DNA of 64,000 bases from Candidatus Adiutrix intracellularis (GTDB taxonomy: Bacteria; Desulfobacterota; Desulfarculia; Adiutricales; Adiutricaceae), in the NCBI GenBank assembly GCA_001577715.1, contig LQAA01000069.1, forward strand, positions 3,703 through 67,702, given 5' to 3'. The notes below the pieces were generated by a model that saw only the letters and a list, made by a program, of their open reading frames with translations, was not told the DNA's origin and ran no database searches. The translations under genes were made by a program, and so were the position numbers. This document shows positions 4,048-62,970 of this stretch, one piece after another (position 1 is the first letter of the stretch; each line of letters starts with the position of its first letter).

Positions 4048-4346
4048 AATATTAGTTAAAAATAATGTAATATTTAAATTTTTATAATGATACTATTTTT
4101 CTATAATAAAATTATATAGCTATAATATTAATTTATTAAAAAATAGATTCCTTTACTCCCCATTATGTTAATCAAGTTCCTAAAATATTACTCAATTTTT
4201 TGGTTAGTTAGAAAAAATTAACAAAAAATAATTTATTCTTACAAATAATTACAATACTTTATAAAAAGCACCCCTTTAGGTACGATTTTAAATTTATTTA
4301 GTAAGTAAAAAAATTAAATCGTGAAACTCCTCCCGACGAATGCATA
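4048..4346 (+). mobile_element. MITE family copy 1 (~300 bp)
   Basis: Shares the core AAAATAGATTCCTTTACTCCCCATTATGTTAATCAA...TAGGTACGATTTTA with five other loci; right end CCGACGAATGCA; eroded flanking duplication TAATA(AA)CTA/TAATACTA. Confidence 0.75.
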
Positions 4347-4373
4347 ATATACTAAAAATAAATTGGTCTTAAA

Positions 4374-5698
4374 CTAAACTTCCAGCGATTTTTTGCTGAA
4401 ATATGCTAAAATTAATAGTAAAGTATCTATTATTCTAATACATACCTTTATAAATAATACTTTTCTATTAACTTATATCAAATGTTATATTATTATTCGG
4501 TCGTACACACAGATCCAATACTAACTCGTGGTTAACCTCCAGCTATTCCCCTACAAGAATCGTACTGAGAAAACGGAAGGGCTAAAAAGGAACCCTGGCC
4601 AACTTTTCCTGCCTTGTTTCTGATACAATCTATTTGATTAAATGCAACACCAAAGGGAATCTTCCGTTTCAGCCACGGAATCTTTCTTTATCATTTAATT
4701 AAAACTCATAGTCACATTCAGATTATTATAACGCCATGAAAAAATTTAGACCACCAAATTTTATTTCCTCCAAATTAAACCCTAAGTGAGATTTAACCTT
4801 GACTATAATAGTCGCACGCATTATTTCTTCCAAAAATAAATTGGTGACACCCACTCCTCAAGATATATCGAAGGCAGATATCATCCTTTAGCCTAATCTA
4901 GTTACAGCCGCAACAAAAAACAATGTTGGTTCCTAAAAATATTAAAATTATAAAAGTTAAAAAATACCGCTTAGATTACCGTCTTGTATTTAACCGCAGT
5001 TTACGGATTAATTGAAAGTAAAAATCTACAACTGAGTCTTTTCCATGAAAAAAATACTTTAATTTTAAAATTAAAGACAACAGTTTCCTCTTTTCTCGAG
5101 AGGATAAAAGCATTGTAACGGAAGCTATTCTTAATGATATCTATATTATCAAAACTTCGATTACTTCGAAAAAAAATAAGCGTCACCGACTGCGTTTACA
5201 ACTACAAATAATCATCATAAATGGAACGAACCTTCTGTACGGTAAAAACTATCGGAAAAAAATTAGACCACTTTATTGCTATACAGAATCGAGAGTTCAG
5301 ACGCATTTATTTTTGTACGTGTTGGCCTGTTATATTGAATAACACATGCATAAAACCTGGAAAAAATTAACTTTTACCACTAAAGAATTAGTTTAAAAAA
5401 ATCCGCACCCCCATAGCACTAGTGCAAAGCTTAGACAGTACCAAACAAAAAGGACTATGAAGAATTAATTCCAGCTTCTCACCTTCGCAAATATTTTAAC
5501 CAACCTTGCCAGCATCGGCTTCAATATATTTTAAGCACTCTTTAACACGCAAAATACCAACTAAGAACTTTTTACTTTTAACACCACGACCTAACCCTCG
5601 CTTTGATTATAAAAAGTTCTCGATCTGATTCAAATTAAAAATCCTGCCCCTTAAAAATACATTTAATTTAGTATATCGAAGAATGAAAGTTTAAGTTA
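4374..5698 (+). mobile_element. IS1634-family relic with internally deleted, fragmented transposase
   Basis: PPAIPLQESY*ENG..TLANFS (N-terminus), DLTLTIIVARII, LQLSLFHE, DIYIIKTS, ERTFCTVK, RVQTHLFLYVLACYIE*HM. Left end TAAACTAAACTTCCAGCGATT resembles the reverse complement of the right end at 62695-62714. Confidence 0.85.
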
Positions 5699-5849
5699 AC
5701 CAAAAATAATTTTCTCTCTATATCACCGCAATATCTCAAAATATATTTTTCACACAACCAATCCTATTTTCCTCACGAATAATTCTCAATTATATTTTTA
5801 AGCCCGCCATCTTGAACCCCAAGTTCTTAGACCAATACTTTACAAATAA

Positions 5850-6330
5850 TTTGATAAATTTATTAAAAGGCTTTATTGACTTGAGTAAAGCCAATCTACT
5901 AAAAATATATTTAAGGGAAACGCCAGTTAAAGAGATTGATTCCGTATGGCGAAACTAAATGAAGTCAATCTCAACGGCATCAATCTCCATATGGTTATCT
6001 TGGCAAAACCAATTTACAGAAAAATAATCTTGATCGAACTAACCTCACCTGAGTCAATCTTAATAGGGTTAATCCTAATAGATCTCATTTTACTGGAGTC
6101 AATTTAAGCGGAGCAATACTCTTTTTAGTTTAAAAGTTTATTATATTTTATCGAAAGATATCTGGCTATAAATATTGAGGAATATGCTAATCTTTCATCT
6201 AAATCTCAAACACTTTATAAAGCGAAGTTATCACCGACTCCCAAAAATAAATTAGAAACAAAATATCCAAGTCTTTTTTTACCGAAGCCAACTAACTATC
6301 AGCTTTTATCGGAGCTACAGGAAGCGCCAG
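5850..6330 (+). pseudogene. Pentapeptide-repeat protein pseudogene
   Basis: LSKANL..LNEVNLNGINL..TNLT*VNLNRVN..GVNLSGAIL repeats plus a TLYKAKL..KYPSLF tail; stops and frameshifts. Confidence 0.7.
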
Positions 6331-6367
6331 ATAAAAATAAATGAACGACGCGTGATAACTATCCAAC

Positions 6368-6409
6368 TAAAAAGACCGGAAATCATTTATTTTATTAGAT
6401 TTCCGGTCT
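6368..6409 (-). terminator. Intrinsic terminator downstream of tmRNA
   Basis: Perfect 12-bp stem AGACCGGAAATC/GATTTCCGGTCT followed by a T run on the minus strand. Confidence 0.75.
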
Positions 6410-6435
6410 CTATCGAACTCCATCGGATTTTCTAC

Positions 6436-6791
6436 TGGTGGAGGCGGCGGGAATTGAACCCGCGTCCGAAGATTTTCCCCCGAAGTATCTACAGGCTTAG
6501 GCCATTATTTAAATCTCACCCCGATAGCGCCAATGGACAGGCTCTCCCGAAGGCCAGCGAAAAGATTTTCTTATTCCATTTGTCCTTCCACAACCAAATG
6601 AAACCAGCCCATTTAACCACACCCCGCAATCGCCCCGGGCCAGGTCGACTGTAGAATGCTGGCCTAAGCGGCCAGTGCGTACTCGTAAGAGTCTGCTTTT
6701 GTATTTAAATCCCAAATGGATTAACGAGTCACCGGGTCGCTCGGCCTGCCGCTGCGAGTTCAATTATCCCCGTCGAAACCATATCGCCCCC
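6436..6791 (-). ncRNA. ssrA: tmRNA
   Basis: 5' GGGGGCGATATGGTTTCGAC, 3' GGTTCAATTCCCGCCGCCTCCACCA; internal tag frame ending YALAA*. Confidence 0.97.
6664..6696 (-). other. tmRNA tag reading frame ADSYEYALAA*
   Basis: GCA GAC TCT TAC GAG TAC GCA CTG GCC GCT TAG on the minus strand. Confidence 0.9.
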
Positions 6792-6804
6792 TTTATCTTT
6801 ATCT

Positions 6805-6833
6805 AAGATAAATCCTAACCCGCAATATTGCAA
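6805..6833 (-). promoter_or_regulatory. Putative sigma70 promoter of ssrA
   Basis: TTGCAA, 17 bp, TATCTT, 13 bp before the mature 5' end. Confidence 0.5.
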
Positions 6834-7044
6834 GATATTTTTCTATACAGATCTTTCAGACCCTAGCCAAACTCGGGCGTAGCGGTGTTGAAACCGAACT
6901 TAACCGCTACATAAGCTCCGATGACCTTTTTTTAAAAGAAACGCCGTTTAACACAGCGGGTTAATCCATTAACTAAGCGGCGGAGAGGCTATTTATTGGG
7001 TTATTCAACTAAATTAGTGACTAGTTGCAACAGCTTCTATACTG

Positions 7045-8330
7045 AACCTAAGTCAGACAATTTTTTAATTACTTGTGATAAACTGAATAATAATTAAAGC
7101 TGAGCAACCCAGCAAAATATTTTCATAAAACTAAATGGAGAGCCTCTGATAATCAATGGATTAATATTCTAAAAACCACGAAAAAAGCCACCCGAAAACC
7201 CAGGTCCAAAAATAATGACCATTCTATCTATGTTTAATCTTGTCTATACTTAACATGAACTATTTGGACAGAGCATCCAAAGCCCTTTTATAAAGAGCCT
7301 TTAAAACAGCGGAAACTTTCTTTAAAATATAAGCTTCCCCCCCACAGCTAACAAACATACTACTAGTTAAGTTACAAAAAATTATAAAACTAAGTATAAG
7401 ATATGGGTCTTGCCTTCTGAAAAAAGCTGATAGTCAACTAATTTCGAACTTATTAATCCAGTGCTAATGACTTCAAGCAGTATCTAGTCACGATAAATCT
7501 CTCCACAACGTTTGTAACAATAGGCGGCTCCATGATATTCGATAAGCCACCGGAGGGCACAACCAGTTAAATTCATTACTAAACGATATTTTTAGTTAGT
7601 TTAATAATTAACTCCACATTAAAACCGCAGGTTTTTTACTCTAGGGCAAAGATCTTACTTTAACTAGGTATTCGTCAGAAATAATTTCATTTTTAATTTT
7701 TCTAACGGTACTAAAAATATATACTTATAATATTACTCCATTAAAAATAGATTCATCTACTTTCCACTATATTAGTCAACCCCCAAAAATACTAATTAAA
7801 TTTTTGATTAGTCAGAAAATTTATAAAAAATAAATTATTATTTTTTATAAATAATTACAATATTTTATAATAAAGTACTTTTTTAGGTACGATTTTAGAT
7901 TTTTTTAGTAATCAATAAAGTCTAATTGATGAATATGCGATCTTATCAAGTTCTTCAGAGATAAAAAATATTTGAGACTAGGACTTATGCCCTAGTTACG
8001 CTCCGACTTTGCACTTTTCATTGCGCTTCTTTTATTCATGGGGATTGGTAATATTAGACGATGGAGACTTCGATAGGTTCCTAAAATTCTCTCAGGCTCT
8101 AGCTAGATTAATTTCCTATTCGGTAACTTTATCTCGTAAGGTAGTACTCTCTACTCGTAACAGAGCATTCCAATCGCATAAAACATCAAGTGAACATTCA
8201 AATCTATCTATTATTCTAGAAAGCTTAAAATACTGTATTTTACGATTTACTTGATCCTATAATCACAATATACTATGTTTTTATGTTCATTATAACTACA
8301 TATTACTTAATAATTACCATGAACAGTTAA
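7045..8330 (-). mobile_element. IS66-family relic, 3'-truncated, interrupted by a MITE
   Basis: ENFRNLSKSPSSNITNP..KVGA*LGHKS matches NSRNSSKPPSSD..GGQPGH. Homologous to 54612-56153. Terminal TTAACTGTTCA resembles IS66 GTAA-type ends. Confidence 0.85.
7666..7939 (+). mobile_element. MITE family copy 2, inserted in the IS66 relic
   Basis: Absent from the homologous IS66 copy at ~55755-55775; ends AGGTATTCGTCAG / TTGATGAATATGC; shares the family core. Confidence 0.85.
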
Positions 8331-8625
8331 CGATAGCACAAAAAACATCAGAGAAGATAATAACCTTGTTAAGATGAGCAGTCCCCATAAGTAAACTATG
8401 GTTTTATACCTTATAGATGACATAATAAAAGGCCTTTTTAAGCTTGCTATCCGTAATAACCTCTTTCAACTATAGGTGGTTCTTATAAAATAATCTTTAT
8501 AGCCTTAACCATTAAACAAGGTTTTTCCGCAACTTATCAGTTAAACAAAAAACTCTAATCTCTGTTTTGATAAATATTTTTCATTTAATTGAAAATATAC
8601 TTCCCTCGTAAGCTCCCGGCAACGA

Positions 8626-9345
8626 TTAACCGCTATGAAGCCCGAAAGTAGCCCCCAGAGCCGGTGAGTTGAAAATGGACTCAGGCGGCCCCTGGGCTAT
8701 TATGCGGCGATTTAAACAAATGATCCAGTCCGCATGAGCCCGAGCAGTAGGGAGATCATGACTGACCATAAGAATAGTAAAACGATTTTTAAAACCTTCC
8801 AGAAGCTCACAGAGAAGCTGCTCGCCATAGACATCCACCCCAGTGGCAGGCTCGTCCATAATTAGCAAATCCGGTGTCAGGCTCAGGGCCGATGCCAACA
8901 AAACGCGCTGAAATTCACCCCCAGAAAGATCGCCCAACCGGCGTCCGGCTAGACGCTCAGCCCGAACCTGATTCAGCAGTTCTAGAGCCCTGGCCCTAAC
9001 CACCCTAGCCAACCCCAACCATAAAGGACGGTCAGTGAGGCCCAGAGCCAGAAATTCCAACACGGTCAGAGGCAAGCGGCGGTCAAAATCCAAGCGCTGA
9101 GGAACATACCCTAACCGAATTTTAGAAGGATTAAAAATAACTTGCCCTGTTTTTAAAGGAATCTCACCCAGAATACCCCGTATGAGAGTAGTTTTGCCAC
9201 CGCCGTTAGGGCCAATAACAACTGTCTGGCCACCGATGGGTATAACGGCAGACAAGTTATTCAAAATATCTAGTTGCCCCAGTTTAACGGAGACATTTTT
9301 TATTTCCACTGCCCAAGGACGCGGCGAAAAGGCTGAGAGCGTCAT
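8626..9345 (-). CDS. Zn/Mn ABC transporter ATP-binding protein (ZnuC-like)
   Basis: GPNGGGKTT Walker A, LGYVPQ, LSGGEFQRV signature, LLIMDEP, SHD. Confidence 0.9.
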   Translation of the reverse strand: MTLSAFSPRPWAVEIKNVSVKLGQLDILNNLSAVIPIGGQTVVIGPNGGGKTTLIRGILGEIPLKTGQVIFNPSKIRLGYVPQRLDFDRRLPLTVLEFLALGLTDRPLWLGLARVVRARALELLNQVRAERLAGRRLGDLSGGEFQRVLLASALSLTPDLLIMDEPATGVDVYGEQLLCELLEGFKNRFTILMVSHDLPTARAHADWIICLNRRIIAQGPPESIFNSPALGATFGLHSG

Positions 9346-10334
9346 TTTCGCCGGTGCTGGAGGAAAATATCTTCCGGTTTATCCAACTCAGTCGGAGGTT
9401 GGGTGAAAAGTTTTTCTAGAACTTGAAGATCGGCAAACATAATTTTCTGGTAATAGTCCAATGGAGCATCATCCGGACCAGAGGCAACCGGGTCGATAAG
9501 GACCACGGGCAATTTAGCTTCCACCCCCACCAAGCGGGCCAAATCGACCCGCCCGCCCGGATCAGCTAAAATAGCCCGAACGCCAGCCTCCCTGGCCAAG
9601 GTGGATAATTCGAGCAAACGGGCAACCGAAGGAACCGCCTCATCTTCACTTTCAATGATAGCCACGACCGGTAACCCCATCTCCGCCGCTATATAAGCCA
9701 AACTTTCATGACTTATCATAACCGGGGGATGACCAAGTCTAACCCCAATGGTAGCGAACTGATCTCCCAGGCCTTGGAATTCCACAGCTAGCTTATCAGC
9801 CTTAACCCGATAGATTTCCGCTCTATCAGGATCGATAACGGCTAGGCCGGCAGCGATATTGCGAACTAGACTAGCGGCCAGACCGGGGGCAGCAAAAAAA
9901 TGAGGACCTACCCCTCCCTCCTCCCTCCCCCGGAATCGGAGCTGCGCCTCCGCCAGGTTTATGATCAGGGCGGTCTCCGGGCCGCCGCCGGGCAGACCGG
10001 CGGAAGCGTCAATTATTTTCAGACCAGGCTTAGCCACGCTTAAGGCTCTTTTCAAAAAAGTTTCTAGCCTTAAGCCGCCGGTTATCATAAAATCGGCCTG
10101 AGATAAACATTCCAGTTCCACCGAAGTGAGGGTATGATCGTGGGGACAGCCGGCAGCAGTAACCAAAAGACGAGAAGTAAGCTCCTTCCCGCCTTCAAGG
10201 ATATTACGGGTAAACAAGTAGATCGGAAAAATGGTAACCAGAATTTCCTGCCTCGCCCAACCCAGCCGAGCCGGGATCAAAACTAAAACCAGAATTAAAA
10301 CGACGCTCCGCAGAATCAGAATTAATTTTTTCAT
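9342..10334 (-). CDS. Zn/Mn ABC transporter substrate-binding protein (ZnuA/TroA-like)
   Basis: Signal peptide; VTIFPIY, CPHDHTLT, GPHFF and SHES metal-ligand segments; ATGA overlap with the ATPase gene. Confidence 0.85.
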   Translation of the reverse strand: MKKLILILRSVVLILVLVLIPARLGWARQEILVTIFPIYLFTRNILEGGKELTSRLLVTAAGCPHDHTLTSVELECLSQADFMITGGLRLETFLKRALSVAKPGLKIIDASAGLPGGGPETALIINLAEAQLRFRGREEGGVGPHFFAAPGLAASLVRNIAAGLAVIDPDRAEIYRVKADKLAVEFQGLGDQFATIGVRLGHPPVMISHESLAYIAAEMGLPVVAIIESEDEAVPSVARLLELSTLAREAGVRAILADPGGRVDLARLVGVEAKLPVVLIDPVASGPDDAPLDYYQKIMFADLQVLEKLFTQPPTELDKPEDIFLQHRRK

Positions 10335-11941: not shown

Positions 11942-11999
11942 ATCCTAATTCTTAAAGAAGATTCTAATAGCCATCACTGACTATTTACATAATAAAATA

Positions 12000-14659: not shown

Positions 14660-14681
14660 AATATCTACGAGGAAAAACAAC

Positions 14682-22915: not shown

Positions 22916-24171
22916 CTACGATTCTAATCTTGTTATATTTTATATTTAATCTATCGAAACATACTTGAATTTATATTAAATTATATTAAAATATACCCAC
23001 GAGCCATTTGAAGAAAAATATATTCTTGCCTTGGGAGCAGGCTGAAGAAGCACCAGGTAAACATTTCGGTCAAAATACTCATTATTCCATATCTAACACA
23101 TACTTAGCTGAATTTTCTGTTTTTTTATATGGAATTCTTCCTTTCTGACTCACCAACGCACTCTTCAAGGACTGTATAGTCGTCCCAATTTACAAACTCT
23201 TTTTCAAAGCGTATAAATTCCTATAAAATACATTATCGAAATTGCTCTACAAAAAAATATTCCGACGGTGACATAGAGTGCTTTCACAGACTTTTAGTAG
23301 TAGCCTTTGTCACACTGGGCTAAAATATAGACCTGCCCCTAGCTCTAGAATTTATAATCCCGCAAGATATAGGTATAAAAAATAAAACTGCGAATAAAAA
23401 ACTACTGCGCGCTGATTGGATAAATAGACTTTAAAAGTTAAAGAACTGCGCCCCATATTTATTGGGTAATAACCTTTATACTCACCAACCATTCCACAAA
23501 AAATTTTTAATTCTGAGTTTAGATTTATCTTTACCTGTAACTATTCTAGCCACAAGACTTTACAAGAGTATTTTTCTGGAGTTAAGCTGGACGGCTTATC
23601 TTTAGGTAAGCTCATTCTAAGCAAAAACCGAATAAAACATCAGGATAATTAGTTAGAATAAATTTTAATTCGCAATAATGAAATTTCTTTGAATGGCAAC
23701 TGAATCCATCTTTAAATAGCAAATTCCGCCGATAAAATAAAGTCTTTGATCTGTAACTTCATTACCGACTTTAAATCTTCCAAACACAACATTGAAAGTT
23801 TACTCAGATACGCTAATAGTTAGTGGAAAAGAAAAAATAAAACCTCTAACTTCTTAAAAAATAACAGCTACCTTTTGAAGTATAAATTCAGATACGAAAA
23901 AAAATCCTCGCCGCACTCCTGGTAGTATTTATTTTACCGACCTTCATCATACATAGCGTTTGCTAGTTGATCAAAATACTATGGCAGAAAGCGCAAAATA
24001 GTTTCAATACTAAAAGCCATCTCTTCATTAATTCTTGATCCATCATAATGTATCACCTCTTCACCTCCCAGGATGCGCTCCTTAAGACTATCATATCAGG
24101 CATCCCAGCATCACAAATACGCTAATCTAATCTTCATTCTTAATCATATAACCTTAGAATGAGAATTATTA
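22916..24171 (+). mobile_element. ISNCY-type IS relic A with both ends
   Basis: FLTHQR..NLQTLF, LPLALEFIIPQD, homology to 48740-49704. Left 70 bp is homologous to 36107-36180. Right IR TTAGAATGAGAATTATTA. Confidence 0.8.
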
Positions 24172-24189
24172 TAATTACAAGAATAGGGC

Positions 24190-25712: not shown

Positions 25713-25806
25713 GGAGAGGTACCGAAGAGGTCGTAACGGGGACGACTCGAAATCGTCTTGTCGGCGATGAACCGACACGTGGGTTCGAATCCCACCCTCT
25801 CCGCCA
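25713..25806 (+). tRNA. tRNA-Ser(CGA)
   Basis: GGAGAGG/CCTCTCC acceptor stem, GACGA-CTCGAAA-TCGTC anticodon arm, long variable arm, GGTTCGAATCC, CCA. Confidence 0.97.
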
Positions 25807-26871: not shown

Positions 26872-27916
26872 AAACACACAAATAAATAAGCCCTCAGTTT
26901 GAATTCTCTGTTACATTACCTCCTGTCCGAACTTGAGTATGGGAGGGCTCATACGGAAGACAACACGATCAAACGAGACAAGTTCACAATTTCGCCTGCT
27001 CTGAACGACCTAATCAGAGTTTATCTTGAATTTCGGCAGGATTGTTCAGAAAGTCTCAATCTAAAAATCGTCAAAAAGTTCCTTGAAGACCTTTTTAACT
27101 TTATGAAAAAAATTAGACAAAGAACGGCCGGAACCGAATATTTTCTAGCTGTAACGCAGATAGGAAATATAATGTTACGGTTTCAGGAAAATCAAAAAAC
27201 CTAAATTTAAAGCTATTGTACGATGAAGTAATAAAAATAAATAAGATTGCTTTGATAATAAAAAAATTGAATGCCGCAAAAAAAAAGATCAAGCTGAGAA
27301 GGTACCAGATCTTTCCCAGGATTATTATAACAATGATAGACAAGCTGCTCTGTCCACATAAATGAGCTTAATCTTCTCGACTCCAGCCTCCACCAAAAGA
27401 CTAACAGAACTAACAAACAAAAAATAGCTTCCCTTCTTAACTAATCCCTGAGCTAGATACGCTTCCGTTTAAAATAATCTTTTAAATCATACTGAAAATA
27501 GCACGTTAGATACAAGGATTAAACTCTTATACGGCGACCTAGAAAGTCTTAACGCGAAATACCCCATAAATATAAACGAGGAGCCCATACAAGTCGTAAT
27601 CAATACTGTAGCTAAAAGCAAGTTCAACTTGACTAAATACTTGAATAACAACAAAGATAACATCGATTACAATTCATATCTAAGAATAAGGTTGGTTCAT
27701 CAGTAACGGAGCGGGAACAGAACCGTACTTTAACAACGATTGAAGCACCCTGGAATGTTTTGAAATATTAAAAATAGCCAGTGCATCCTAACCCTAATAT
27801 CCACGACCAAGAATAAATTTTAGAAACAAGCTATTGAAAAGACTCTCTTTAGAAGCTATAAACTTGAAAAGGACATCTGAGTTAAAGAATAAAAAATACT
27901 TCTTTTTTTGTACCCC
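26872..27916 (+). mobile_element. ISLre2-like (UPF0236 Mutator-type) IS relic A, internally deleted
   Basis: LDTLPFKI, VINTV fused to YLNNNKDNIDY, SGNRTVL*QRLKHPGM. Homologous to 62976-64000. Right end CTTCTTTTTTTGTACCCC is an inverted match to the left end GAGATGCCAAAAAAATAAG of copy B. Confidence 0.75.
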
Positions 27917-29349: not shown

Positions 29350-29693
29350 ATCCGCATGTAAGCTTATACTTTCACAAATCACTCTATACTTAAATTTTTG
29401 ACCGTACACGCTTAAAAACTAACTATATTATTATGATCTACAGATCGCCCCCCTAACATTAAAAATAACGCTTATTATCGCATTAAGCCCGGTTTAATCA
29501 GCGGCCGCTCTTTAAATCGCCCCCTAGTAAAAAACCCAGAAAATTAATTCGCTATCCAGTATTCGGAGTAATTAGTCAGGCTATAATATTCTTTTCCCCA
29601 GTTCCCCAGGGATAACGATCTACATAATCACCTGATTAAATTAATCTATGCGAAAATCTATTTCAAAATTACGCTGACCGCCCAAATGTATTA

Positions 29694-29948
29694 CATCTTT
29701 ATCAAGAATAATTTCACACTTAAAAAAATTTTTATTGTACTTATTTATAATAATTAACCAACTTATTTTTTTGTTAATTTTTCTTAACTACACAAAAAAT
29801 TAAACAACATTTTGAAAGCTCAACTAACATAATAAAGAGTAAAGGAATCTATTTTAGTAGATTAATATTATAATTATATACTATTACTACAAAAAAATTA
29901 ACCCAACTGGAAAAATTAACAACATAAAATTACTTTTGGCGAGGGTAT
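29694..29948 (-). mobile_element. MITE family copy 3
   Basis: Reverse-complement core TAAAGAGTAAAGGAATCTATTTTAGTAGATTAAT; eroded IRs; flanks AATGTATTA/AATATATCT. Confidence 0.75.
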
Positions 29949-32007
29949 AATATATCTAAATACTGAAATACATAAATTATATTCCCTCCCCAATGACCCC
30001 CACGAAGCTTACCTCCTGTGCCCTCCTAGAATCGAATCTAGCCAGGTTACCCACCATTTATGTACAATATATCGATCATTAATCAGTACGAAATTTTTAA
30101 ATCTATCCCCAAAAACTACCGTCAGATGTTTTTTTATTAATCCTTTTTAGATTCTCAACACCAACGCCGACTCGACCAAGTACGGGGTAACCCTGCTAAA
30201 AAGCTTCAGGCCAAAACAAAAAAAGAAAAAATTCTTTATCTAAAATTCATGCTGGATAGCCCGATGTCCCCTCCCAGCATCAGCACCAACGCAAATCTAA
30301 ATTCCCGCTTTACGGCAGCCATTCAAGAAAAGAATAGGAGAACCCTGAAGCGCCTGTTAGATGAAACTTATGAGGCCTGAAAATATAACCTCTACCTCCA
30401 AAATAATATTAATAATTATATTATTTTGAGTAAAAACCTCTTCCTGCTTTATCATAAAAACAAGGTCCCTCTTGTGTTTACCACCGACGTTCCTAAAATC
30501 CTATGCAGCACCCTAACCAAGCAATATGCACCAACCAACCTACAGAATAAAGAAAGGCAGGAACCGAAAAACATCACCGGAGTTTTTTAATCTGATCGTC
30601 AAATAATCGACAACATTTTCCGATTACTAACTAAATCCCGGTATCCGGTATGAGGTAGTTTGTTCCTAGCTGGACTGACCAAACAAAAACTAAACCCCAT
30701 CTCAAATCAAATAACGAAACTTTCCATATTTCAGGGTGGCCAATTCCAACAGACGTCTGTTAGAAGACACCGGCCCGGCGGAGTCTAGATTATGGACCAG
30801 CCAAAAAGTAACGCCGAGGATAACCAAAATCTGAGAGCCCTGGTACCCCTGACACGACTCCAGACGTCGGTTTAAAAAGCCGAGTTCAGATATCGCCCCA
30901 CGAAGCAATACCCGAATTAAGCGCACCGTACCTTCTCCAACATCTATGCAACAATAGCCAGAACTTCATCCAGGTTAAATTTGCTTAAAGCCAAGCTAGC
31001 TGGTACCCCGCCAGAAACCCTGGTTTAAATCAACCAAGCCACCTAAGTCGGAGCTAAGAGATAGAGAGGCTGGCAACAAGTCGTAGGCCACCAACCTATA
31101 GATCGGGAAGAAAGTTTCCAGTACCTAAACGGCGCATGAAGAGCCTTCCCATAAAGCCAGATCCAATTAATCGAAACTAGGCTAAGAAGAAACTCAAAAG
31201 TCTGAAACTAACCCGACCATAGAGATATTTTTTCCTAAGACCTTCATCTTTCTATAAGGTTGAAGAAACGGTGATCACCAGAAAAGCTACCGGAAGTAGA
31301 GATAAAAGCAAAATTAGAACAGTCCAACCCACCACTTTTCCAGAGCTAATATAACTATTCTCCGACCTGGTTTCAAGCTAAGGTCTCCACCTTAACCTTT
31401 CTACTATCGGCTGATCTAGGCTAATAATTAAATTATTACTTACCACCTAAAATCGCAAGTCTTAGCCAGCAAGTCTAATCTTTAGTAAAGACGTCTTATT
31501 TATAGCTCCAGCCATAAATCCAACCATACCAACCAACCTAGGTGGACATAGCAGATATGCTGAAATATTTTCAAGCTATTCAGAACCCCGTATTCATCCA
31601 GGATCTAGCCTACGCAGGCCATGGTGACAGCAATTGTTTTACCAACGAACCCATTCTGACCCAGAGAGGCGATAGTAAAACAGCGATTAAGAAAAACTTT
31701 TAACTGGTCAAAAACGTCGACCCAGTAAACAAAAGTAGCCAGAACCAAAACCGCAGCGTGATGCAACTAAAAGTAAATAGTTTTATATCATCATCCTGGA
31801 AACATTTGTCGCCGTTATGCTAGCAAGTCTCACAAACCAAACTAAGTTTAATATCCAACCCGAATAAATTAAGCACTTCCATCTAACCACTGGCCTCGGC
31901 CACACCTTCGCCCACGGCCCGGCTCAAAGTGTTAGAATTAGAACCCTTACAAGAACTACTTAATATTATAATCGTTATCTGTCCAATTTTTACGGCCCTC
32001 CTGAAAG

Positions 32008-36106: not shown

Positions 36107-37053
36107 CAGTAACTCTCATTTTAGCATATTTTGTATTGAGCCTATCACAATATACTTTAACTTATGTTAATATATATTTAAAAGGTATTTAGAAAAATGG
36201 AATAACACTAATCAAAAAATACTTACCCCAATTTTGCGAAAAATAACTTAATGAGGTGACAACTGTTGTAAAACGCCGTTACTATACCTTATATATTCTG
36301 ATCAAGACTAACCATCTAATGGTTGGCAGGTCAAAAGTAAGAGCCTCTGTTTAAAAGCAGACCTCTCAAAACGATAGACTAACCATAATTATACCGAAAT
36401 ACTGAAAGTGAACCACTTACAATTTTAGATGTTTCCCTATGAATAGCGCACAGACTATTTCGCAAACTAAATATTTCTATTGCCTAGCATTGTCAGTATC
36501 TTTAATTACAACTAAAAGGTTTATAAGCTCTTAGAAAAGTTTGAACAGTTACTCAAGTCAAAGCTAATTAATAACCCTGTTCTAAATAATAATGCAGATG
36601 AACCCTCATATAGAATATAGCTACCAAAAAAGTCTAGCTATATCTGACCTCAGCGCCTCTCTACATCAGGTATTCCTTACACCAAAATATAGTCTTGAAA
36701 TAATGACCGAAATAAGCACACTACCTAAATAGTCAGGACTATTCCTATCATGGTCACTAGAAATTTTACTATACTTATATCGAAAATCTCCATGTTCTCT
36801 AAAACGCACCCCATTTAAAAAAACATACTACCGCTAAAAAAGACGCTAGCTAAAGTTAGGCAGGGAAAATAATTTCACTACTCAAATATCTGAATAATAA
36901 ATTGAAACCGCCGATAGTCATCTGATCAACATATATCACATCTTCACCTCCTAGAGTACACTCCCCAAGACTATCATACTAGGCGTTCCCCCAACGTAAA
37001 TATACTAAGTTAGCCTTCATTTTCATCATGTAACTCTAAAATAAGAAATATCA
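36107..37053 (+). mobile_element. ISNCY-type relic B: both ends kept, interior replaced by an IS66 fragment
   Basis: Left IR CAGTAACTCTCATTTTAG, right IR CTAAAATAAGAAATATCA. 36905-37053 is homologous to 24030-24171 and 49570-49704. Confidence 0.75.
36330..36880 (+). pseudogene. IS66-family TnpC fragment (different subgroup from the 7 kb and 55 kb copies)
   Basis: LQF*MFPYE*RTDYFAN*IFL.SIVSIFNYN*KVYKLLEKFEQLLKSKLINNPVLN..ADE.SY matches YQLIPYxR..F.D...S.G.IFN.N...Y..LE.FE...K..L....L.ADET. Confidence 0.65.
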
Positions 37054-54085: not shown

Positions 54086-54223
54086 TAAAAGTATGATAAT
54101 ATATTAATGTTAAGATAATAAAATTATATCGCTATAACAAAATCGTGTTCATCTAAATATCATTAACATATTAAATATTTTTAATACATCAACCAGCTTT
54201 AAATAAAGCTTTATTAATAATTA

Positions 54224-54491
54224 TACATCCATCAAACGCAAATTTATTTTTTTATTTTTCTAGTGATGCTAAAATATTATAATTATAGTGTTGATCTATT
54301 AAAATAGATTCCTTTACTCCCCATTATGTTAATCAAACTCCTAAAATACTAATCAATTTTTAATCAGTTAGAAAAATTTAACAAAAAATTATGTTATTAT
54401 TATATTTTATAATAAAAATGCTCTTTTAAGTATAATTTTAGATTTTTTTGATACATAAAAAATAATTATAAAATTCCCCCTAACGAATGTG
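54224..54491 (+). mobile_element. MITE family copy 5 (268 bp) with perfect 9-bp TSD
   Basis: TAATAATTA at 54215-54223 and 54492-54500; IRs TACATCCATCAA / CTAACGAATGTG; family core. Confidence 0.88.
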
Positions 54492-54611
54492 TAATAATTA
54501 TTGATTGAATCACCTACCTTAGTCTGGTGGTTTAAATAACTAATGATATAGTTTATCACTAAATAATCGATGCTACTTTATCTAATCTCATTTTATAATC
54601 TTCCACGGGGC

Positions 54612-56153
54612 GTATTTTTTACAGGTTAAAATTTACAAATTAGTAGTGAAGAATGGGCCTACTTTGTATAAAAAATTTGATAGCCTGGCGCAAAAATTAA
54701 AATAGAAAATACTTACTCATAGTACAAGTGATAATAACCGTCTAGATGCACTCTGATCAGTTACGCTCAACTTCAGAATAAGTTCCCTGAATGTCAACCC
54801 TGTTCAAAACCACAAAGCGAATGATTAGCTTGATTAAATTATTGGTAAGCTCAATTTCCAGGTTGACGATAAAGCACAAATTTGACTCGTAATCTTTACG
54901 GAAACGCCTAGTTAAATTCTTAGCTCCTTTTACCACCGGGACCTTGAGTTCTTATTTTATAAGCGTTCTCCACATTTTTGCAATTTATCATGGATAGTTA
55001 TATCGGCTTCCGTTCTAAACAAATATGATAAAACCGAAACAGGCCTCGTAATTATTCCAGAAGCCTTACCCTATAACTTCGAGTTTCCGAGCCCTGGTTT
55101 TCTGATAGAAATCGTGCGCCCTTAATGAACTGAACCAAACAAAATTAAGCCTGTGCCGGACAATTTTTTAAATACTTGTGATAGGCTGAATAGTAATCAC
55201 AGCTGAGCAATCCAATAAAATCTTTTCCCAAAACTAATTAAAGAACCTCTAACAATAGATGGGCCGATATTCTAAACATCACGAAAAAAAGCGGCTCAAA
55301 AAATCCAAGTCTAAAAATAATAACTATCTTCTTTATGTCCGATCCTGTCTGTATTTAACAAGACTATTCGGGTAGAGCCTCTAAACCATTTTCAGAAGGT
55401 GGCTTCAAATCAACGGAGATTTTCTTTGAGATATTAGTTATTTCTCTACGGCTGACAAGGCATCCCAATACTTCAGCTACAAAAGACTACACGAACAAGT
55501 ACGAAATATAGGTCTTACCTTTTAAAAAAACAAGACAAATAGCCAACTTCGGACCTATGAATCCAGTGTTACTAACTTTAGACAGTGTCTAGCAATGATA
55601 AATCTCTCCACAACGTTACAACAGCAAGTGGCTCCACAATATTCGGTAAGCCGCTAGAGATTAATAATTAGCCCATTTTATTATCATATGATGTCTTTAT
55701 CTTGTTCGGTAATTAACTCTCCATCGCAACCGCAGATTTCTAGCTCTAAAGCAAAGATTCTAACTTTATCAAGTTCTTCAAAAATAAAAAACCTACGCAA
55801 ATAGGACTCTTGCTCTAACTGCGCTCCAAACTTTACGCTTTTTACCGTGTTTCTTCTGTTGAAGGAAATTGCTAATATCAGACGATAATGACTTTGATAA
55901 ATTACTAGATTTCTTTCAAGCTCCAGCCAATTTAGTTTTTAGTTTGGTATCTTTATACCGTAAGGTAATATCTTCTACTCATAACAGAATGTTTCGTTAC
56001 ATAAAACTTCAAACACACATCCCAATTCGTCCAAATGCTAGAAAACTTAAAATATTATATCTTGCGATTTGCTTGATTCTATGATCACAACACGACATAC
56101 TTTTATGTTGACGTACAATTATATCTTATTTGATAATCACCGTGAACAGTTAA
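54612..56153 (-). mobile_element. IS66-family relic, near full length, transposase pseudogenised
   Basis: SSNLSKSLSSD, ICGCDGEL, C..CGEIYH, GPKL, SCDYYSAY, FCLVQFIK, TNN..K..IRFVVL.R..QGT.SE; ends TTAACTGTTCACGG and CCTGTAAAAAAATAC. Confidence 0.9.
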
Positions 56154-56323
56154 TATATTTTTTGAGATCCTAATTATACATTTAAATAGCGTTAGCCAAA
56201 ATAATAGGGTCTATTATCAAGCTGACTCCATAGAAACTATTATAATAAAAATATTTAAGCTTGGCCTAAGCGACCTCACCATGACCCGATTTCAAATTTA
56301 TCCCTGCCTCTGTCATTTCAATT

Positions 56324-57049
56324 TCACCAGGAACCGTCGGTCAAAAGGTCATGCAAAACCTTCTGGGCGCGGGCACCTAAGAGAACTAATTTTTCACCGG
56401 GCAAAGGAGGCAGAGGCGGGCCTATTCTAACCCGGATAACCCCAGGGCAGGGATAAAGACGACCAGCCGGCCATAAAGCCCCAGCGTTTTTAATGGCCAC
56501 CGGCACTAGCAAGGCTCCGTTACGCCGGGCTAAAATTAAAGCCCCCTTCTTGAAAGGTAAAAGTAACGTTACCCCCCGGTTACGAGTACCCTCGGGGAAG
56601 ATAGATAAAATTTCGCCCCGACTTAACCGAGCCCCGGCTTCCTCCATCATTTGCCGGGCCGCCTCGGAACCACCGCTCCGGTCCACCAGCAAATGAACCC
56701 GGGCTAGAGCCCAGCCAAAAAAAGGAATGGAGCCCAAAGAGGCTTTAGCCACCCAAGAAACAGGTAACCCCGTAGCTAGGGCTACAGTGGGAATATCTAA
56801 AAGAGAACTGTGGTTAGCGTAAAGAATAAAGCCGCCGTTCGAGACTGGAAGATTTTCCCGACCCAACACCCTAAGGCGGATACCGGCTGGAATTAACACT
56901 ACGCGGCCCCAGACGGTGTTAGAAATATAACGAGCTAGCCGAATAGAAACTAGACTTAACAACAGGGAAACCGTGCCACACATGACGGTCAAAGTAACCA
57001 GCACCGGTAAATACCAAACCGGGTAAAGTAGTCGAAGCAAACAGTTCAT
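56324..57049 (-). CDS. plsC: 1-acyl-sn-glycerol-3-phosphate acyltransferase
   Basis: NHSSLLD, VDR, FPEGTR, VPVAI; ATGA overlap with the upstream gene. Confidence 0.92.
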   Translation of the reverse strand: MNCLLRLLYPVWYLPVLVTLTVMCGTVSLLLSLVSIRLARYISNTVWGRVVLIPAGIRLRVLGRENLPVSNGGFILYANHSSLLDIPTVALATGLPVSWVAKASLGSIPFFGWALARVHLLVDRSGGSEAARQMMEEAGARLSRGEILSIFPEGTRNRGVTLLLPFKKGALILARRNGALLVPVAIKNAGALWPAGRLYPCPGVIRVRIGPPLPPLPGEKLVLLGARAQKVLHDLLTDGSW

Positions 57050-57618
57050 GGATTCTGTTTCATTAACCACTGGTTTAAGCGGGGTAGTTCCACTTTTGGC
57101 CAGTCCTCTCCCAAGCGTAAGTTCAAAAAATTTTTGAAGAGAGCTTCCAAAAGAGCCAACAGTTCATTCAGTAGAGCCACCCGCTCCAAAAAACGACCAA
57201 CCTCGGTCTCCACCCCCTCTTCCCCTTCACTAAAAGTCTTAGGAAATTTTATGGCCTGGGGGGTTAAAGTATCAGCGGATAATGTTAGTCCCCATTCCTT
57301 ATTGTCTTCATTACGAATTTTTAAACGACCCCGGCTTACTTTCTTACCCTGTCTTAGGCCGGTATGAGCCTCGGCCCACTTAGCATTCGGGTCCTGACAG
57401 CTGATGACTTTCCGATCGGCCCCTTCGCCGCTGTCCAAAGTCAGACGACTTTCAAACCACACTTCAATGTAGCCCTGGGGTTTAATCTTTAACAAGTTCC
57501 CATCCAGTTCAGAACTTATCCACAACCAGGTTAAAAATTCCCGGCCCAAAAAGAACTTATCCCGCCATAAATCTAAAAAGACTACTGGTTCCGGCGGCAG
57601 AGATTCCATCCCCGTCAT
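57046..57618 (-). CDS. RdgC-like protein, C-terminal half
   Basis: EFLTWL..ISC..GKKV..LTL.AD.L..IKF..GRF..LLNEL..LF resembles the RdgC C-terminal region; lies directly after the N-half gene. Confidence 0.6.
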   Translation of the reverse strand: MTGMESLPPEPVVFLDLWRDKFFLGREFLTWLWISSELDGNLLKIKPQGYIEVWFESRLTLDSGEGADRKVISCQDPNAKWAEAHTGLRQGKKVSRGRLKIRNEDNKEWGLTLSADTLTPQAIKFPKTFSEGEEGVETEVGRFLERVALLNELLALLEALFKNFLNLRLGEDWPKVELPRLNQWLMKQNP

Positions 57619-57636
57619 TTTTCCCCCACCCTCTCT

Positions 57637-58248
57637 TCAAGCCAACCAAATCGGCGAAGCCTTTAAATTCAAAAGAACCTGGCGTAATTCCCCAGTAACC
57701 ATTTCCAAGCCCAGAGTTACCGGAACCAGCATTTCCAAAGCTAGACCGAAGGTGTGGCTCCACAACTCCTCGAAACTTAGCCGCCGCTTTTCCCCAGCAG
57801 CGGCTAACCAAATTTCATTTTCCTGGATCAACCACAGCACTTCCATAAGTTCCGTATTGAGCAGGGTCCGGCGCAACAAATCCGACCTCACTACCTCTCT
57901 TAACCCTTTTCTAACTACGCTATTGGGATACTGGCCGGTCTTAGTCAAATGCTGAGCCTCGCGGATAGCACAGTAACGGTTAAGGACAGTATTAGGGAGT
58001 CGGCGACTGTCTAGACGAAGAGTGAAAGCTAAAAGCCCCCCAAAACGATAGGTGGCCGGATTGAAATTGCTATCCAGGTGGTTGAAAAATTCCACCCAGC
58101 CCAAGCTACGTTCTTCGGGCGTATGCTCTATATCCACAAAAGCGTTACCGGCCAACCGGCTGCTTAGATATTCATCAGTCAGGATTTCCGGCGGCTCTTC
58201 CCTAACTCGGTAACGAGTCAAGGCAAGAGAGCCCTTAATAATACCCAT
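57637..58248 (-). CDS. rdgC: Recombination-associated protein RdgC, N-terminal half
   Basis: LTRYRV..F.DI..GWV..LRLD.RRLP..V...GQ....KGLRE.V..DLL.R..VLW.....F.EL...TFG. Confidence 0.7.
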   Translation of the reverse strand: MGIIKGSLALTRYRVREEPPEILTDEYLSSRLAGNAFVDIEHTPEERSLGWVEFFNHLDSNFNPATYRFGGLLAFTLRLDSRRLPNTVLNRYCAIREAQHLTKTGQYPNSVVRKGLREVVRSDLLRRTLLNTELMEVLWLIQENEIWLAAAGEKRRLSFEELWSHTFGLALEMLVPVTLGLEMVTGELRQVLLNLKASPIWLA

Positions 58249-59341
58249 AAAGATTTTCCTTCCCGACCGGGTAGCGACTTCTTAAACCCGCGTCCAGCTG
58301 TTTCCAGAACATCATAATCAATCTATAACTCAGATACAAGCCCGAAAAATGGCGGCCGTCCCGACCCTTTATCGCAGCCTGAAACTCAGCTGGAGTCGAA
58401 ACCTCCGTTTCCAGAGCAACAACCATCAAAGTAATTGTCGCTCTAATCCACAAGATTCTAACGAGTTCCCCCCAGGCCCGCTTTGCACTAACGCGGATAA
58501 TTAGGAAAGTCGCACTAGAGTCAGCCAGTCAGACTAAAATCTATTTACAACCCACCCTTAAAATCTTAACTAAAATCCAGGTATCAATGATAAAAATAGA
58601 TTCAGGCATACTTATTTTACTCTTTCTTCGTATTTACGATACCTGTATTTTTAAAAAACGTTTAGTTTAAAAAATATCATTTAATTTCAATATTATCAAA
58701 ATAAATAGTACTATTTACCTGATTATTTAATTTTAGTTAGTTAATTTTAGACTAAATATTATACAAGAATAGTGTAATTATAAACTGAATTTCATACTAG
58801 TAGATTTTTTATGCACAGGCCCATTTAACGACCGCCTTACAGAGCCAGACCCTAGACAAGATTCTAACTGACGTCTAAACCCTACGATGGCGTAGTTGAC
58901 GCCATCTATGGTCTGGAGTAACACTTGGAAACTAGCTGGCTTTCAGGGAATTTTCTATAATTTCTACCAAGAGTAAGGTCTTTCGATCACACTACTGGAA
59001 GAGACTCCGACCGCTCGGAGCCGGTATAGTCGGAGAACCCATAAAACAACCCCCGCCGAGGGCGGGGGCGGAAGCTACACCTGGGCCTAAAGCGCGATTA
59101 GAGCAGACTCATCACCTTATCGATCATCACCGTTATTTTTCTAAATCTACCCAGCTGCCACAAAAAAAATGCCTAACCCGGCCGCAATCATACATGAGCA
59201 GCACCACCTAGCCGCCTTCAACTATTAAGCGGCCATGGGGAAAAATCATTTCGTCAAGATGCAACGGAAAAGATGGGTTTATTTTCTACGAGCCAATCTA
59301 ACCTTGGCTGCTTCAGGAAATCTCTTTCACAATTCTAAAAT

Positions 59342-60721
59342 TTAGCGACCGCTAGCACTAGGGGGAGAAGAAAGAAAGCGATTTTTTAGAATATCAAGAA
59401 CTCGGTTACGGACGCCAACATAGTTAGGACCATTTAGAAGAATGACAAAACTTATGGGACGGCCGGGGTTGTCCGGACGCTCCAAATAACCAGCCATAGT
59501 TTTGATATCACTCATAGTACCGGTTTTAAAAAGAATCAGACCTTTATCTCCGGGAGTCAGCAGATAACGATCAGGTTCGCTAACTTTCAGTATACCGGCC
59601 ATCTGCCGGGCAGTCAAGGTAGTCTGGCGACTCAGGCCACTACCGTCACCCATAGTGATAGGTTTAAGGCCATGCCGTTGAAAGAAAAAATTCATGGCCT
59701 GCTGGGATTTTACCAAAGTAGCTGGTGGACCATAAAGTTCAGCCCCCAGACTCAAAAAAATCTGGTTAGTTATGAAATTATTAGAGTATTTAATAAGCTC
59801 CCTCACTAAATCCTCCAAAGTTTTGGAAGATTCATGACGATAAAATATTTTGCGTTGTTCCGGGGCGGGGTGGCCGGTAAAAATTACCCCGTACATACGA
59901 ATACCAGCTTCTTCCAGATGAGCCTTAAAGGTCTCCCCAGCGTTAAATTCTGCCTCTTCGGGGCTCTCGGAAATATTAAGTTGATAGGTGCCGCCCTCCT
60001 TGTTCTGAGCGGCTAGTTTTAGAGCCAGGGGGGTTACGGGGAGATGAGCAGCAGCTCTAATAACCTGCCCCTTTTTAGTTTTTTGAAAACTCACGGTATT
60101 AAAGTTAACGCTGAAAGCCCCGTTATAGGCGTCATAAAGCGCGCGAGTCTGAGTGTTACCGTCTAAAATAAGATTAGCTTCAAAATAAGAATCGTCAATG
60201 TAAAGATGGCGGACTTCTTTCAGCCCCCGTTTTTGCAATTCTCGGACAATAACAACTAATTCTTCCGACACAAGATATGGGTCCCCGTAACCCACTATCC
60301 ATAAATCGTTGGTCTTTGTCAGCAAAAAATCAGTTTTAAAACGAAAATCAGGTCCTAAAAATTCAAGCGCGGCCTCGGATGTGACTATTTTAAGTATAGA
60401 AGCGGGAACGTAAAGTTTCTCGGCATTATAGGCATATAATTCCCGAGGGCGACCCTGGGGAGCGTGAGTATCCACAAGCAGCACCGCACCATCTCTGACC
60501 AGAGTCAGCAAATTTTGGGGCCAGGGAAGAGATTCTGGTCTAGGAGCGACTGGGCGGGCTGATTTTTTTTTAGTCTTAGCTAAAGATTGCTTTTGTTTTG
60601 GTTTGTCAGCGGAGCGAGCATAAAGAGTAGACGACAACCATAAGCCCTGACCGAGAAAAATAAAGGAAAAAGCCAGAGTGATAAGAAAGTTGACATGTCG
60701 AAAATATTTACCAGTTTTCAT
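59342..60721 (-). CDS. dacB: D-Ala-D-Ala carboxypeptidase/endopeptidase PBP4 (peptidase S13)
   Basis: PASILK (SxxK), SNN (SxN), KTG, DGSGLSR; signal/TM N-terminus; GGAGG RBS. Confidence 0.9.
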   Translation of the reverse strand: MKTGKYFRHVNFLITLAFSFIFLGQGLWLSSTLYARSADKPKQKQSLAKTKKKSARPVAPRPESLPWPQNLLTLVRDGAVLLVDTHAPQGRPRELYAYNAEKLYVPASILKIVTSEAALEFLGPDFRFKTDFLLTKTNDLWIVGYGDPYLVSEELVVIVRELQKRGLKEVRHLYIDDSYFEANLILDGNTQTRALYDAYNGAFSVNFNTVSFQKTKKGQVIRAAAHLPVTPLALKLAAQNKEGGTYQLNISESPEEAEFNAGETFKAHLEEAGIRMYGVIFTGHPAPEQRKIFYRHESSKTLEDLVRELIKYSNNFITNQIFLSLGAELYGPPATLVKSQQAMNFFFQRHGLKPITMGDGSGLSRQTTLTARQMAGILKVSEPDRYLLTPGDKGLILFKTGTMSDIKTMAGYLERPDNPGRPISFVILLNGPNYVGVRNRVLDILKNRFLSSPPSASGR

Positions 60722-60772
60722 GATAAATATCCCTCCATAACCCAGATGGAACGGCTAATTTGGGCCGGCGGG

Positions 60773-61400
60773 ATGAAATACGCCAAATTTCTAGTCCTAC
60801 TAACTCTGGTCCTATCTCTGGCCAGTTGCGATTCCTCCTTTTTTTCCGCCAAGGACTACGACTGCTCTTATATGGTTAAAAGTAAGCATTATCATATTTT
60901 AGCTTTAACTAAAGAATTTCGGGAAAGAGGAGTAGCCTCTTGGTACAGATAACCCTTCCACGGCCGCAAAAAACAGCGGAAAAATTTACGGTATAAATAA
61001 AATCACGGCGGCCCATAAAATTCAACCCCTACACACCTAAGTTAAAGTATATGAATCTAGAAAACTACTAAATTATAAACATTCACATCAAAAACTGGAA
61101 CTCATTTATAGATAGCCAGGTTACTAATCTTAGCCGGGGCGAAATCCGACTTATGAAACATACTCGACCCACTGGGAACAGCTAAGCTAAGCATCCAAAC
61201 TATCACCGGTAGTAAAGCCCGGTAACCGCCACCGACGAACAGGCTTAACCAACGACATTTAAATCTTATAGCCTCAAGCCTATACCGGAAAGAAGCCGCC
61301 CCCCCATCTAACTTTGGATATAGCTACGACCCCGGCCACCAACTAATTTAATTAAACTAACTAACCTCTTCTCCATATAGTTAGTCACTTTCAACCCTAC
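60773..61400 (+). pseudogene. rlpA: Septal ring lytic transglycosylase RlpA pseudogene
   Basis: Lipobox LASC, GVASWYR*PFHGRK, TAAHK..P.HT*VKV, NLENY; stops and frameshifts. The 3' limit is approximate. Confidence 0.8.
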
Positions 61401-61544
61401 ACTGGAGGCTAGAATGTGGTCGGCCAATTTTTATGATTATTTTAATACTCTTTAAATAGAAAGGCAAGTTGCTTAGACTTATTTTTACCCCCAGTCCCCT
61501 TTGGATTTAGGCTAAAACCTGTTAAAATAAAACTATACTAAGAG

Positions 61545-62710
61545 TGTTTCGGATATTCACGTGATAAAAAGGGAGGTAAGTATCAGATAAATTTATAGTC
61601 TATTAGCTAATAGAGACGAGAACTCCATATCTATTAACGCCTAGCTAGGTAATACTTCTGATTCAACCATATTCATCCCGACGATTGAAAAAATCAGGGT
61701 TAAATTTAGGCTGGGTAAAGTAGTGACTGTAAGGTGATTCGAGGATGTAAGGGGCTAAAAATATAACCCTTCTGCAAGCCATGAGAGATATAGGTTAGAC
61801 AAATGTCTTAAACTTTACATTTATACGGGGGTTACTTGATAATCATAAAATACAGCTTACTTTTTTTGACAAGATAGAACTTTTTTAATTTATTGCGCTG
61901 GACGAATATTCAGGAGAAAGACTGATAGTCTACCGTAATTTATTTCTAGTCGATAAGCGGGTCAAAACCAGAAAGGAACTGTTGATCACCATCCAAAAAA
62001 ATCTGGAGCAAATCGGGGCTAATTTTTAAGTCGAACGTTTATAGGGGCGAGGATACTATAGATCTAGTTGTCAAGCAGAAGATAATTAGTATAGAGCAAA
62101 AGTCGATTTTGAATGGAATCTATATGATTAGAGCATTAATTAATAAAGATAAAATGAGCTCGAAGTAATGCGTCCACACTTATAAAAATTTCCCTAGGTA
62201 GAACGGACTTTCAAAATAGTAAAGAGCGTTGCCATAAAATATAACCTATACTTCAACTAACTGGAACAAAGAGTCAGGGCTCATGTTTTTTTATGTATGT
62301 TAGCTTATCATGTCGAATGGCATATGGGGGAGACTTAGTAAGAATTGATCTTTATCGATAAAGAAATAACAATTAAAAAATACCAGGCTTTAGTTAGCCC
62401 AGCTGGGGAAGAGGCTGCCTAGCTAAAAAACCTCAGTTAAAAACTTAGCTGGGATTCTTGTTCAAAGCTATAACAGTTTACTCCTCAATTTAGTTAACAT
62501 CTGTTTAAACATCTGTTAAGTGAACTGAAATGATTAGAATCAAACTAGCAAAAATGCTACATCCACTCAGATAAATTTATTCACCCCGCTGTAATGAAAG
62601 GTCTTCGATTTGCTCCAATCCATAAATCGTGTCTAGTAAATAAATATTATCTTTTAAAATGATATCTTGAAATAATAAATAAATAATATTAATTAATCGC
62701 GGAACTTCAG
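61545..62710 (+). mobile_element. IS1634-family relic, 5'-truncated
   Basis: FGYSRDKK, GNTSD..IEKIRVKF, VERTFK, RVRAHVFLCMLAYHVEWHM; right end GGAACTTCAG. Confidence 0.85.
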
Positions 62711-62718
62711 TTTAAATA

Positions 62719-62970
62719 AACATTCGCCAGGAAGAACTTAATAATTGGAATCTTCCACTCACTAAATAAATCTAAAAATCGTACCTAAAAGAACATTCTT
62801 ATTATACCTAATTACGATCCTTTATAAAAACAAGATGCCTCATTTTTTATTATTTTTTTTTCTAACTAATCAATTTTTTGATCAGCATTTTGGAAGCTCG
62901 ACTAACATAATAAAGAACAAAAAATCTATTTTAGTAGATTAACATTATAATTATATAATATTATTATAAC
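62719..62970 (-). mobile_element. MITE family copy 6, truncated at the ISLre2-like element
   Basis: AACATTCGCCAG IR, AAAATCGTACCTAAAA, ATCAGCATTTTGGAAGCTCGACTAACATAATAAAG, AAATCTATTTTAGTAGATTAA; second IR missing. Confidence 0.8.

Follow-up and report, generated by a model that had tools for sequence, protein, structure and literature searches.

A dispersed 300-bp repeat of Candidatus Adiutrix intracellularis is very likely a miniature inverted-repeat transposable element that owed its mobility to a transposase of the IS1634 family

The genome of Candidatus Adiutrix intracellularis is available as a 2.08-Mb draft assembly of 155 contigs, with a completeness of 91.6%. One of these contigs contains the stretch of 64,000 bp analysed here (C69:3703-67702, hereafter the window, to which all positions refer unless a contig is named), in which an AT-rich, non-coding repeat of about 300 bp occurs six times (copies c1 to c6). 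This locus raises the question of what the repeat is, which enzyme moved it and whether it can still move. In this study, we report that it is very likely a MITE, or miniature inverted-repeat transposable element, which was once mobilised by a DDE transposase of the IS1634 family of insertion sequences (IS) and which is now dead in this genome.

The six copies align across approximately 300 columns with a mean column identity of 73%, and they were also recovered by an independent repeat search. A profile hidden Markov model was built from them and used to search the whole genome with nhmmer (E < 1e-3). This yielded 87 matches, of which 36 were near full length, located on 56 contigs and on both strands, versus none in the reversed genome. 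Therefore, the similarity among the units, already noted in a preliminary description made from the sequence of the window, is far above chance. The window copies had E-values of 1e-51 to 1e-64 and their nhmmer spans, 4051-4343 (+), 7667-7934 (+), 54225-54491 (+), 29683-29946 (-), 45831-46129 (-) and 62720-62975 (-), agreed within a few bases, and in strand, with the positions given in that description. Altogether, the matches account for 18.8 kb (0.91% of the genome). Full copies are AT-rich and range from 266 to 307 bp. As anticipated, they lack an open reading frame (ORF), since the longest open frame in any copy was 65 aa and no copy was open over its full length. In the same way, no frame was open across any of the 44 copies that exceed 250 bp, as the in-frame read-through of Rickettsia-type palindromic elements would imply. 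The family thus combines the features by which prokaryotic MITEs are recognised, namely small size (under about 500 bp) without coding capacity, inverted repeats, target-site duplication, many dispersed copies, filled and empty sites, and a partner IS, and its earlier classification as a non-autonomous element is confirmed. The flanks of the copies average 37% G+C, compared with 43% for the genome. In agreement with the association with other repeats noted previously, four of the six window copies were within larger repetitive tracts, c4 and c5 being solitary. Local clustering was also found elsewhere, with three copies within 2.3 kb (C71:10112-12444) and an overlapping head-to-head pair (C55:22142-22405), which suggests insertion into or beside earlier MITE copies.

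The ends of the element were defined by aligning the 36 full copies with 50 nt of flanking sequence. The similarity ended abruptly at both sides and, outside the ACATTC motif, three further positions were near-fixed, reading Y-A-Y on the left (A in 35 of 36 copies) and R-T-R on the right (T in 32 of 36). Given this near-fixation, the true termini are CACACATTCGTCAGGAG at both ends, 3 nt beyond their earlier placement. They read YAY+ACATTCGTCAGGAG followed by AATTT, and the inverted repeat which they form is imperfect and extends to about 26 bp, with about 23 matches in 26 positions. Accordingly, the inverted repeats of the preliminary description do exist, but the length of 12-13 bp assigned to them was too short and their starting point too far inside. 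An excess of direct repeats was observed only at flank positions 4 to 9 (57% match versus 42% in permuted pairs, z = 5.7), which corresponds to a 6-bp duplication. The duplicated hexamer shows a palindromic preference, with nTWWAn as its consensus. A 9-bp duplication abutting ACATTC was also considered and rejected (z = 1.8 versus 5.7 for the 6-bp register).

Three paralogous empty sites were identified, none of which contains the outer 3 nt, and each filled counterpart shows a duplication of 6 bp. The outer 3 nt are accordingly part of the MITE, and the duplication is 6 bp long. One of these sites lies in the window, where a sister copy (55150-55827) of the repeat interrupted by c2 reads ...CTAAC-TTTATC-AAGTTC..., with a single 6-bp target (55765-55770, +) and no MITE. 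The other two correspond to the copies C134_2965 and C91_62411, which interrupt IS200-type relics, many uninterrupted sister copies of which serve as empty sites. Taken together, the register scores and the three empty sites replace by 6 bp the flanking duplications of about 9 bp that had been proposed for this repeat. An orthologous empty site for c5 was sought in genome G004, in which the gene upstream of the phosphorylase gene differs and synteny is lost.

With the termini established, the genome was searched for the terminal 14-mer outside the MITE matches. This revealed a second, longer repeat family of 1.7-1.8 kb which opens with the same 17-bp termini as the MITE. At least seven decayed copies of it are present (C33, C105/C106, C87, C65, C21, C52 and C16), with pairwise identities of 61-73%. 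The left end reads CACACATTCATCAAGAG in the C33 copy and CATACATTCGTCG... in the C65 copy, and the right end of the C52 copy reads ...CTTCTGACAAATGTGTG. A stop-ridden frame of these copies matches the profile of the IS1634 family transposase (NF033559, E = 7e-16), and the copies remain below the cut-off of this profile because they are degraded. None of the partner IS was found anywhere on the window contig C69. In this regard, the preliminary description had left the mobilising transposase without a name and had found no matching IS end in the window. The former statement is superseded by the assignment to the IS1634 family, and the latter is compatible with a partner located outside the window.

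The order was then searched with a stitched pseudo-protein, and a near-intact relative was found in a congener (genome G009). This element is 1811 bp long (L095:1101-2911, on contig G009:C95), its ends are ATATTCGTCAGGAG and, inverted, ACATTCGTCAGAAC, and it is 70.6% identical end to end to the IS consensus of the source genome. Its two ORFs, of 154 and 365 aa, score 72 and 216 bits on NF033559 (cut-off, 100), and a single stop was reported in its 570-aa frame. Members of the IS1634 family are 1500-2000 bp long, have ends of the form C-----YT and generate duplications that are AT-rich tracts of 5-6 bp (PMC2266710). The MITE end CACACATTCG fits this pattern, with C at position 1 and TT at positions 7-8, and the 6-bp nTWWAn duplication fits the AT-rich signature of the family.

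The divergence within each family was then measured. Full MITE copies are on average 71% identical pairwise (range, 62-82%) and 81% identical to their consensus (about 19% diverged), with a unimodal distribution that indicates one old burst followed by independent decay. The partner-IS copies are about as diverged as the MITE copies and hence of similar age. C>T and G>A changes were found at 31-32% of the consensus C/G sites, and A>G and T>C changes at 9-10% of the corresponding sites. As C>T and G>A changes dominate, G/C columns are less conserved (63%) than A/T columns (85%). After base correction, conservation varied by no more than +/-0.09 between 15-nt windows and was thus flat over the whole element, so that the conserved core which had been pointed out in the repeat is an effect of composition and disappears once base-specific mutation rates are removed. 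The decay of the MITE looks neutral under a GC-to-AT mutation bias. Its transposase is dead in the source genome, in which a six-frame scan found 41 IS1634-type transposase fragments, all of them carrying stop codons.

Several observations weigh against the reading of the repeat as an IS1634-mobilised, extinct MITE. Outside their shared 17-nt ends, MITE and IS show no significant similarity (p about 0.1), so the link between them rests on the termini and on the duplication and target features. The G009 IS lacks a clear 6-bp duplication, its flanks TTTATT and ATAAAG not being a direct repeat; this may reflect past recombination between copies, or ends placed one base off. Copy c3 and a further copy, located on C69 but beyond the window, have perfect flanking repeats of 9-10 bp in a register shifted by one base, which are probably chance extensions plus 1-nt indels at the ends, and from which the earlier estimate of about 9 bp probably arose. 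It must also be considered that duplications of variable length have been reported for some IS1634 members (PMC2266710). Finally, the assembly is a draft, and what it lacks could include an intact transposase.

The first two of these observations would suit a MITE moved by some other transposase, with termini that match those of the IS1634-type element by convergence or through the capture of its ends. We consider this improbable. Two repeat families that were defined independently have the same 17-mer at either end, which is not chance, and the 14-mer AYATTCGTCAGGAG, with at most one mismatch, occurs 24 times in the genome, nearly always at the end of a MITE or IS, versus once in a backwards control. 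Moreover, the combination of a 6-bp AT-rich duplication with C-----YT ends is the published IS1634 signature, and the two families share their age, as indicated above. The incompleteness of the assembly would in turn allow for a family that is still active, with an intact partner IS hidden in the unassembled 8% or in collapsed repeats of the 155 contigs. Against this stand the absence of any two MITE copies more than 82% identical to each other and the stops in every transposase fragment. In addition, among the matches that exceed 95% identity within the assembly there is neither a MITE copy nor any IS1634 element whose frame is open, nearly all of them being contig-end overlaps or short non-coding duplicates. 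Continued activity is thus very hard to sustain.

As to how the MITE arose, we examined whether it could be an internally deleted form of its partner, and this candidate was rejected (subterminal 55 nt versus the IS ends, z 1.2-1.6, p about 0.1). A motif at a matching distance from the right end, ATTTTAGATTTATTTGG versus ATTTTAAATGTATTTGG, is only suggestive. Since the interior is not recognisably derived from the partner IS, a speculative reading, to which we assign a low likelihood, is that it is captured DNA by which some copies now provide neighbouring genes of this eroded genome with transcription signals, for instance c5 the glucan phosphorylase gene.

A role of the element, or of its interior, as a module co-opted by the host and kept by selection, for example as a small RNA, promoter or terminator cassette, was weighed along with the tests of function. 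Single copies fold about 2 standard deviations better than shuffled sequences on both strands (z = -3.5 for the consensus), and only 30 bp separate the end of c5 from the start of an intact downstream gene, both of which could be read in favour of co-option. Nevertheless, RNAalifold found no consensus structure on either strand (0.0 kcal/mol), and the folding signal is strand-symmetric, as would be expected of DNA with inverted-repeat ends and palindromes. Rfam gave no match at the gathering threshold and none for c1 even at E <= 1, so a structured RNA was discarded. Promoter-like sites in and around c1 and c5 were no commoner than in shuffled sequence, and a promoter or terminator cassette was discarded on these grounds; the flat base-corrected conservation also speaks against co-option. 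Preservation by the host therefore seems highly unlikely, and the repeat is better regarded as a decaying MITE.

The distribution of the MITE was examined in 49 other genomes of the order, including 10 congeners, which were searched first with one copy and then with the consensus. Only weak, AT-rich partial matches without element ends were obtained. In G009, which lacks the MITE, the terminal motif was found at the IS and, apart from it, at a single site, probably by chance. A gapped pattern with two perfect termini at the MITE spacing had no hits in 185,579 species genomes or in metagenome contigs. The family is thus specific to the source lineage. Only 57% of the genome, and 54% of the window, is occupied by ORFs of 100 aa or more, and free-living bacteria typically exceed 80%. 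Such low cover points to heavy pseudogenisation, as would fit an organism that became restricted to a host recently, and the features of the genome may resemble those of an endosymbiont lineage of termite-gut flagellates. The best named relatives of its MutL are deltaproteobacterial MAGs, with identities of at most 45%. Given a lineage-specific family and a heavily eroded genome, the suggestion of the preliminary description that the element expanded during host restriction is plausible.

From the sequences available, we infer the following course for its mobilisation by this particular IS1634-type transposase and for when the burst took place. The 1.7-1.8-kb IS, whose 17-bp termini are those of the MITE, would have provided the transposase in trans, and this enzyme would have bound the MITE ends and inserted the element at AT-rich nTWWAn targets through a 6-bp staggered cut, the repair of which would have left the 6-bp duplications. 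Amplification to about 80 loci would have taken place after the split from the sampled congeners, most copies landing between genes in AT-rich DNA or in sequence that was already dead, older IS200-type relics among it. All the IS1634 transposase genes would later have become pseudogenes, leaving the MITE immobile and subject to neutral decay.

MITEs associated with IS1634 elements have been described in Methanosarcina, with ISMba11 and ISMac10 as partners; they are 247-249 bp long, have inverted repeats of 18-20 bp and occur in tens of copies (Kamoun et al., 2013; PMC3852290). The one linked to IS1634 in M. barkeri has a 6-bp direct repeat (PMC3852290). They resemble the present family in the partner IS family, in their similar size and in the 6-bp duplication. 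However, they are archaeal and stand beside intact partners, whereas the present family belongs to a bacterium of a deltaproteobacterial lineage, occupies about 80 loci and has pseudogenised partners. There is no sequence similarity between the two, and the copies described here are about 19% off their consensus. IS1634-linked MITEs with 6-bp duplications were hence already known from Methanosarcina, and what is particular to the present family is its bacterial host, its extinction along with that of its partner, and a similarity to the latter that is confined to the termini. The partner element itself agrees with the IS1634 family in length, ends, duplications and transposase profile, and the MITE has no transposase gene (De Palmenaer et al., 2008; PMC2266710).

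Two further systems deserve comparison. MITECca01, of the Cardinium endosymbiont cOegib, has 169 copies that make up 3.5% of the chromosome, mostly in intergenic regions and inside mobile elements (PMC9769881), and like the present family it represents a lineage-specific burst in a repeat-rich, eroding genome. It is derived from an IS982-family element, has the stretch downstream of the left repeat in common with its parent and is regarded as still maintained by parental copies that remain intact. The family described here, by contrast, is of IS1634 type, has only the termini in common with its partner and is extinct. The Nezha MITE of Nostoc and Anabaena shares terminal repeats and duplication with its putative partner ISNpu3, and the best partner copy is found in another species (PMC3184786). 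In the same manner, the only near-intact partner of the present family is found in another species, a congener. Nezha was recently mobile according to orthologous empty and filled sites, whereas the present family is old and decayed; their sequences are unrelated.

The main value of these results lies in annotation, as about 1% of the genome and several AT-rich islands of the window are explained by a single dead MITE family. They also tie this MITE to a specific IS1634-type partner and add a bacterial example to those so far described in Methanosarcina. The MITE, the partner IS and the IS200-type relics, at roughly 61-77% pairwise identity, provide a rough internal clock of genome erosion, and such relics also supply the mutation spectrum of that erosion, with strong GC-to-AT transitions. 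The family is otherwise an ordinary fossil of a mobile-element burst, which opens no new mechanism or question.

With respect to the individual window copies, c1 (4046-4346, +) is full length (301 bp), with the duplication ATAAAC (4040-4045)/ATATAC (4347-4352), which matches at 5 of 6 positions. It begins 82 bp downstream of a tRNA gene (3891-3964), and a similar tRNA, whose downstream flank is also similar, is found at C12:1038-1332 without a MITE. A second tRNA gene and one tmRNA gene (178 bits) are present in the window as well, the three features being at 3891-3964, 6436-6791 and 25713-25803. The repeat tract beside c1 holds a short IS1634-family transposase relic (5256-5414, +; C69:8958-9116), a weak match with 2 stops which is not a copy of the partner IS. 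Copy c2 (7665-7941, +; 277 bp) lies inside one copy of another decayed repeat, with the duplication TTTAAC (7659-7664)/CTTATC (7942-7947). Copy c3 (54222-54493, +; about 272 bp) has an internal deletion, and AATAAT stands on either side of it, offset by 1 nt at the right; its 10-bp repeat TAATAATTAT is fortuitous.

On the opposite strand, c4 (29683-29949, -) covers profile positions 3-273; its left end is intact (TATACCCTCGCC...), and the right one, together with its inverted repeat, is either missing or has diverged. Copy c5 (45828-46133, -) is full length (306 bp), with the duplication TTTAAC/TTTAAT (5 of 6 positions matching). The intact gene next to its left end encodes an alpha-glucan phosphorylase of 846 aa (TIGR02094, 850 bits), and the distance of 30 bp given above is counted to its ATG (46163). 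Copy c6 (62717-62975, -) is 5'-truncated (profile positions 49-300) and its right end is intact. The repeat tract beside it holds another, short relic of an IS1634-family transposase with 1 stop (62198-62326, +; C69:65900-66028).

The commonest repeat of the genome is a decayed IS200/IS605-type element, represented by 49 Y1_Tnp (PF01797) fragments, nearly all with stops. They are about 65-77% identical to each other (for example, C134:2970-3170, C91:62549-62770 and C106:1051-1371), none of them is on the window contig, and at least two MITE copies are inserted in such relics. Other decayed repeat families of the window, with identities of 73-82%, comprise 23136-24167, 36927-37050 and 48728-49701; 27454-27609 and 63392-63551; and 7047-8004 and 55150-55827, the last pair being the family into which c2 inserted. 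Two AT-rich, non-coding segments of the window have near-identical counterparts on other contigs, 61530-62287 at C39:5023-5780 (99.7%) and 36412-36925 at C87:5765-6278 (97.9%), both being far younger than any of the IS or MITE relics. Among the other matches above 95% identity, most are overlaps of contig ends, which suggests redundancy in the assembly.

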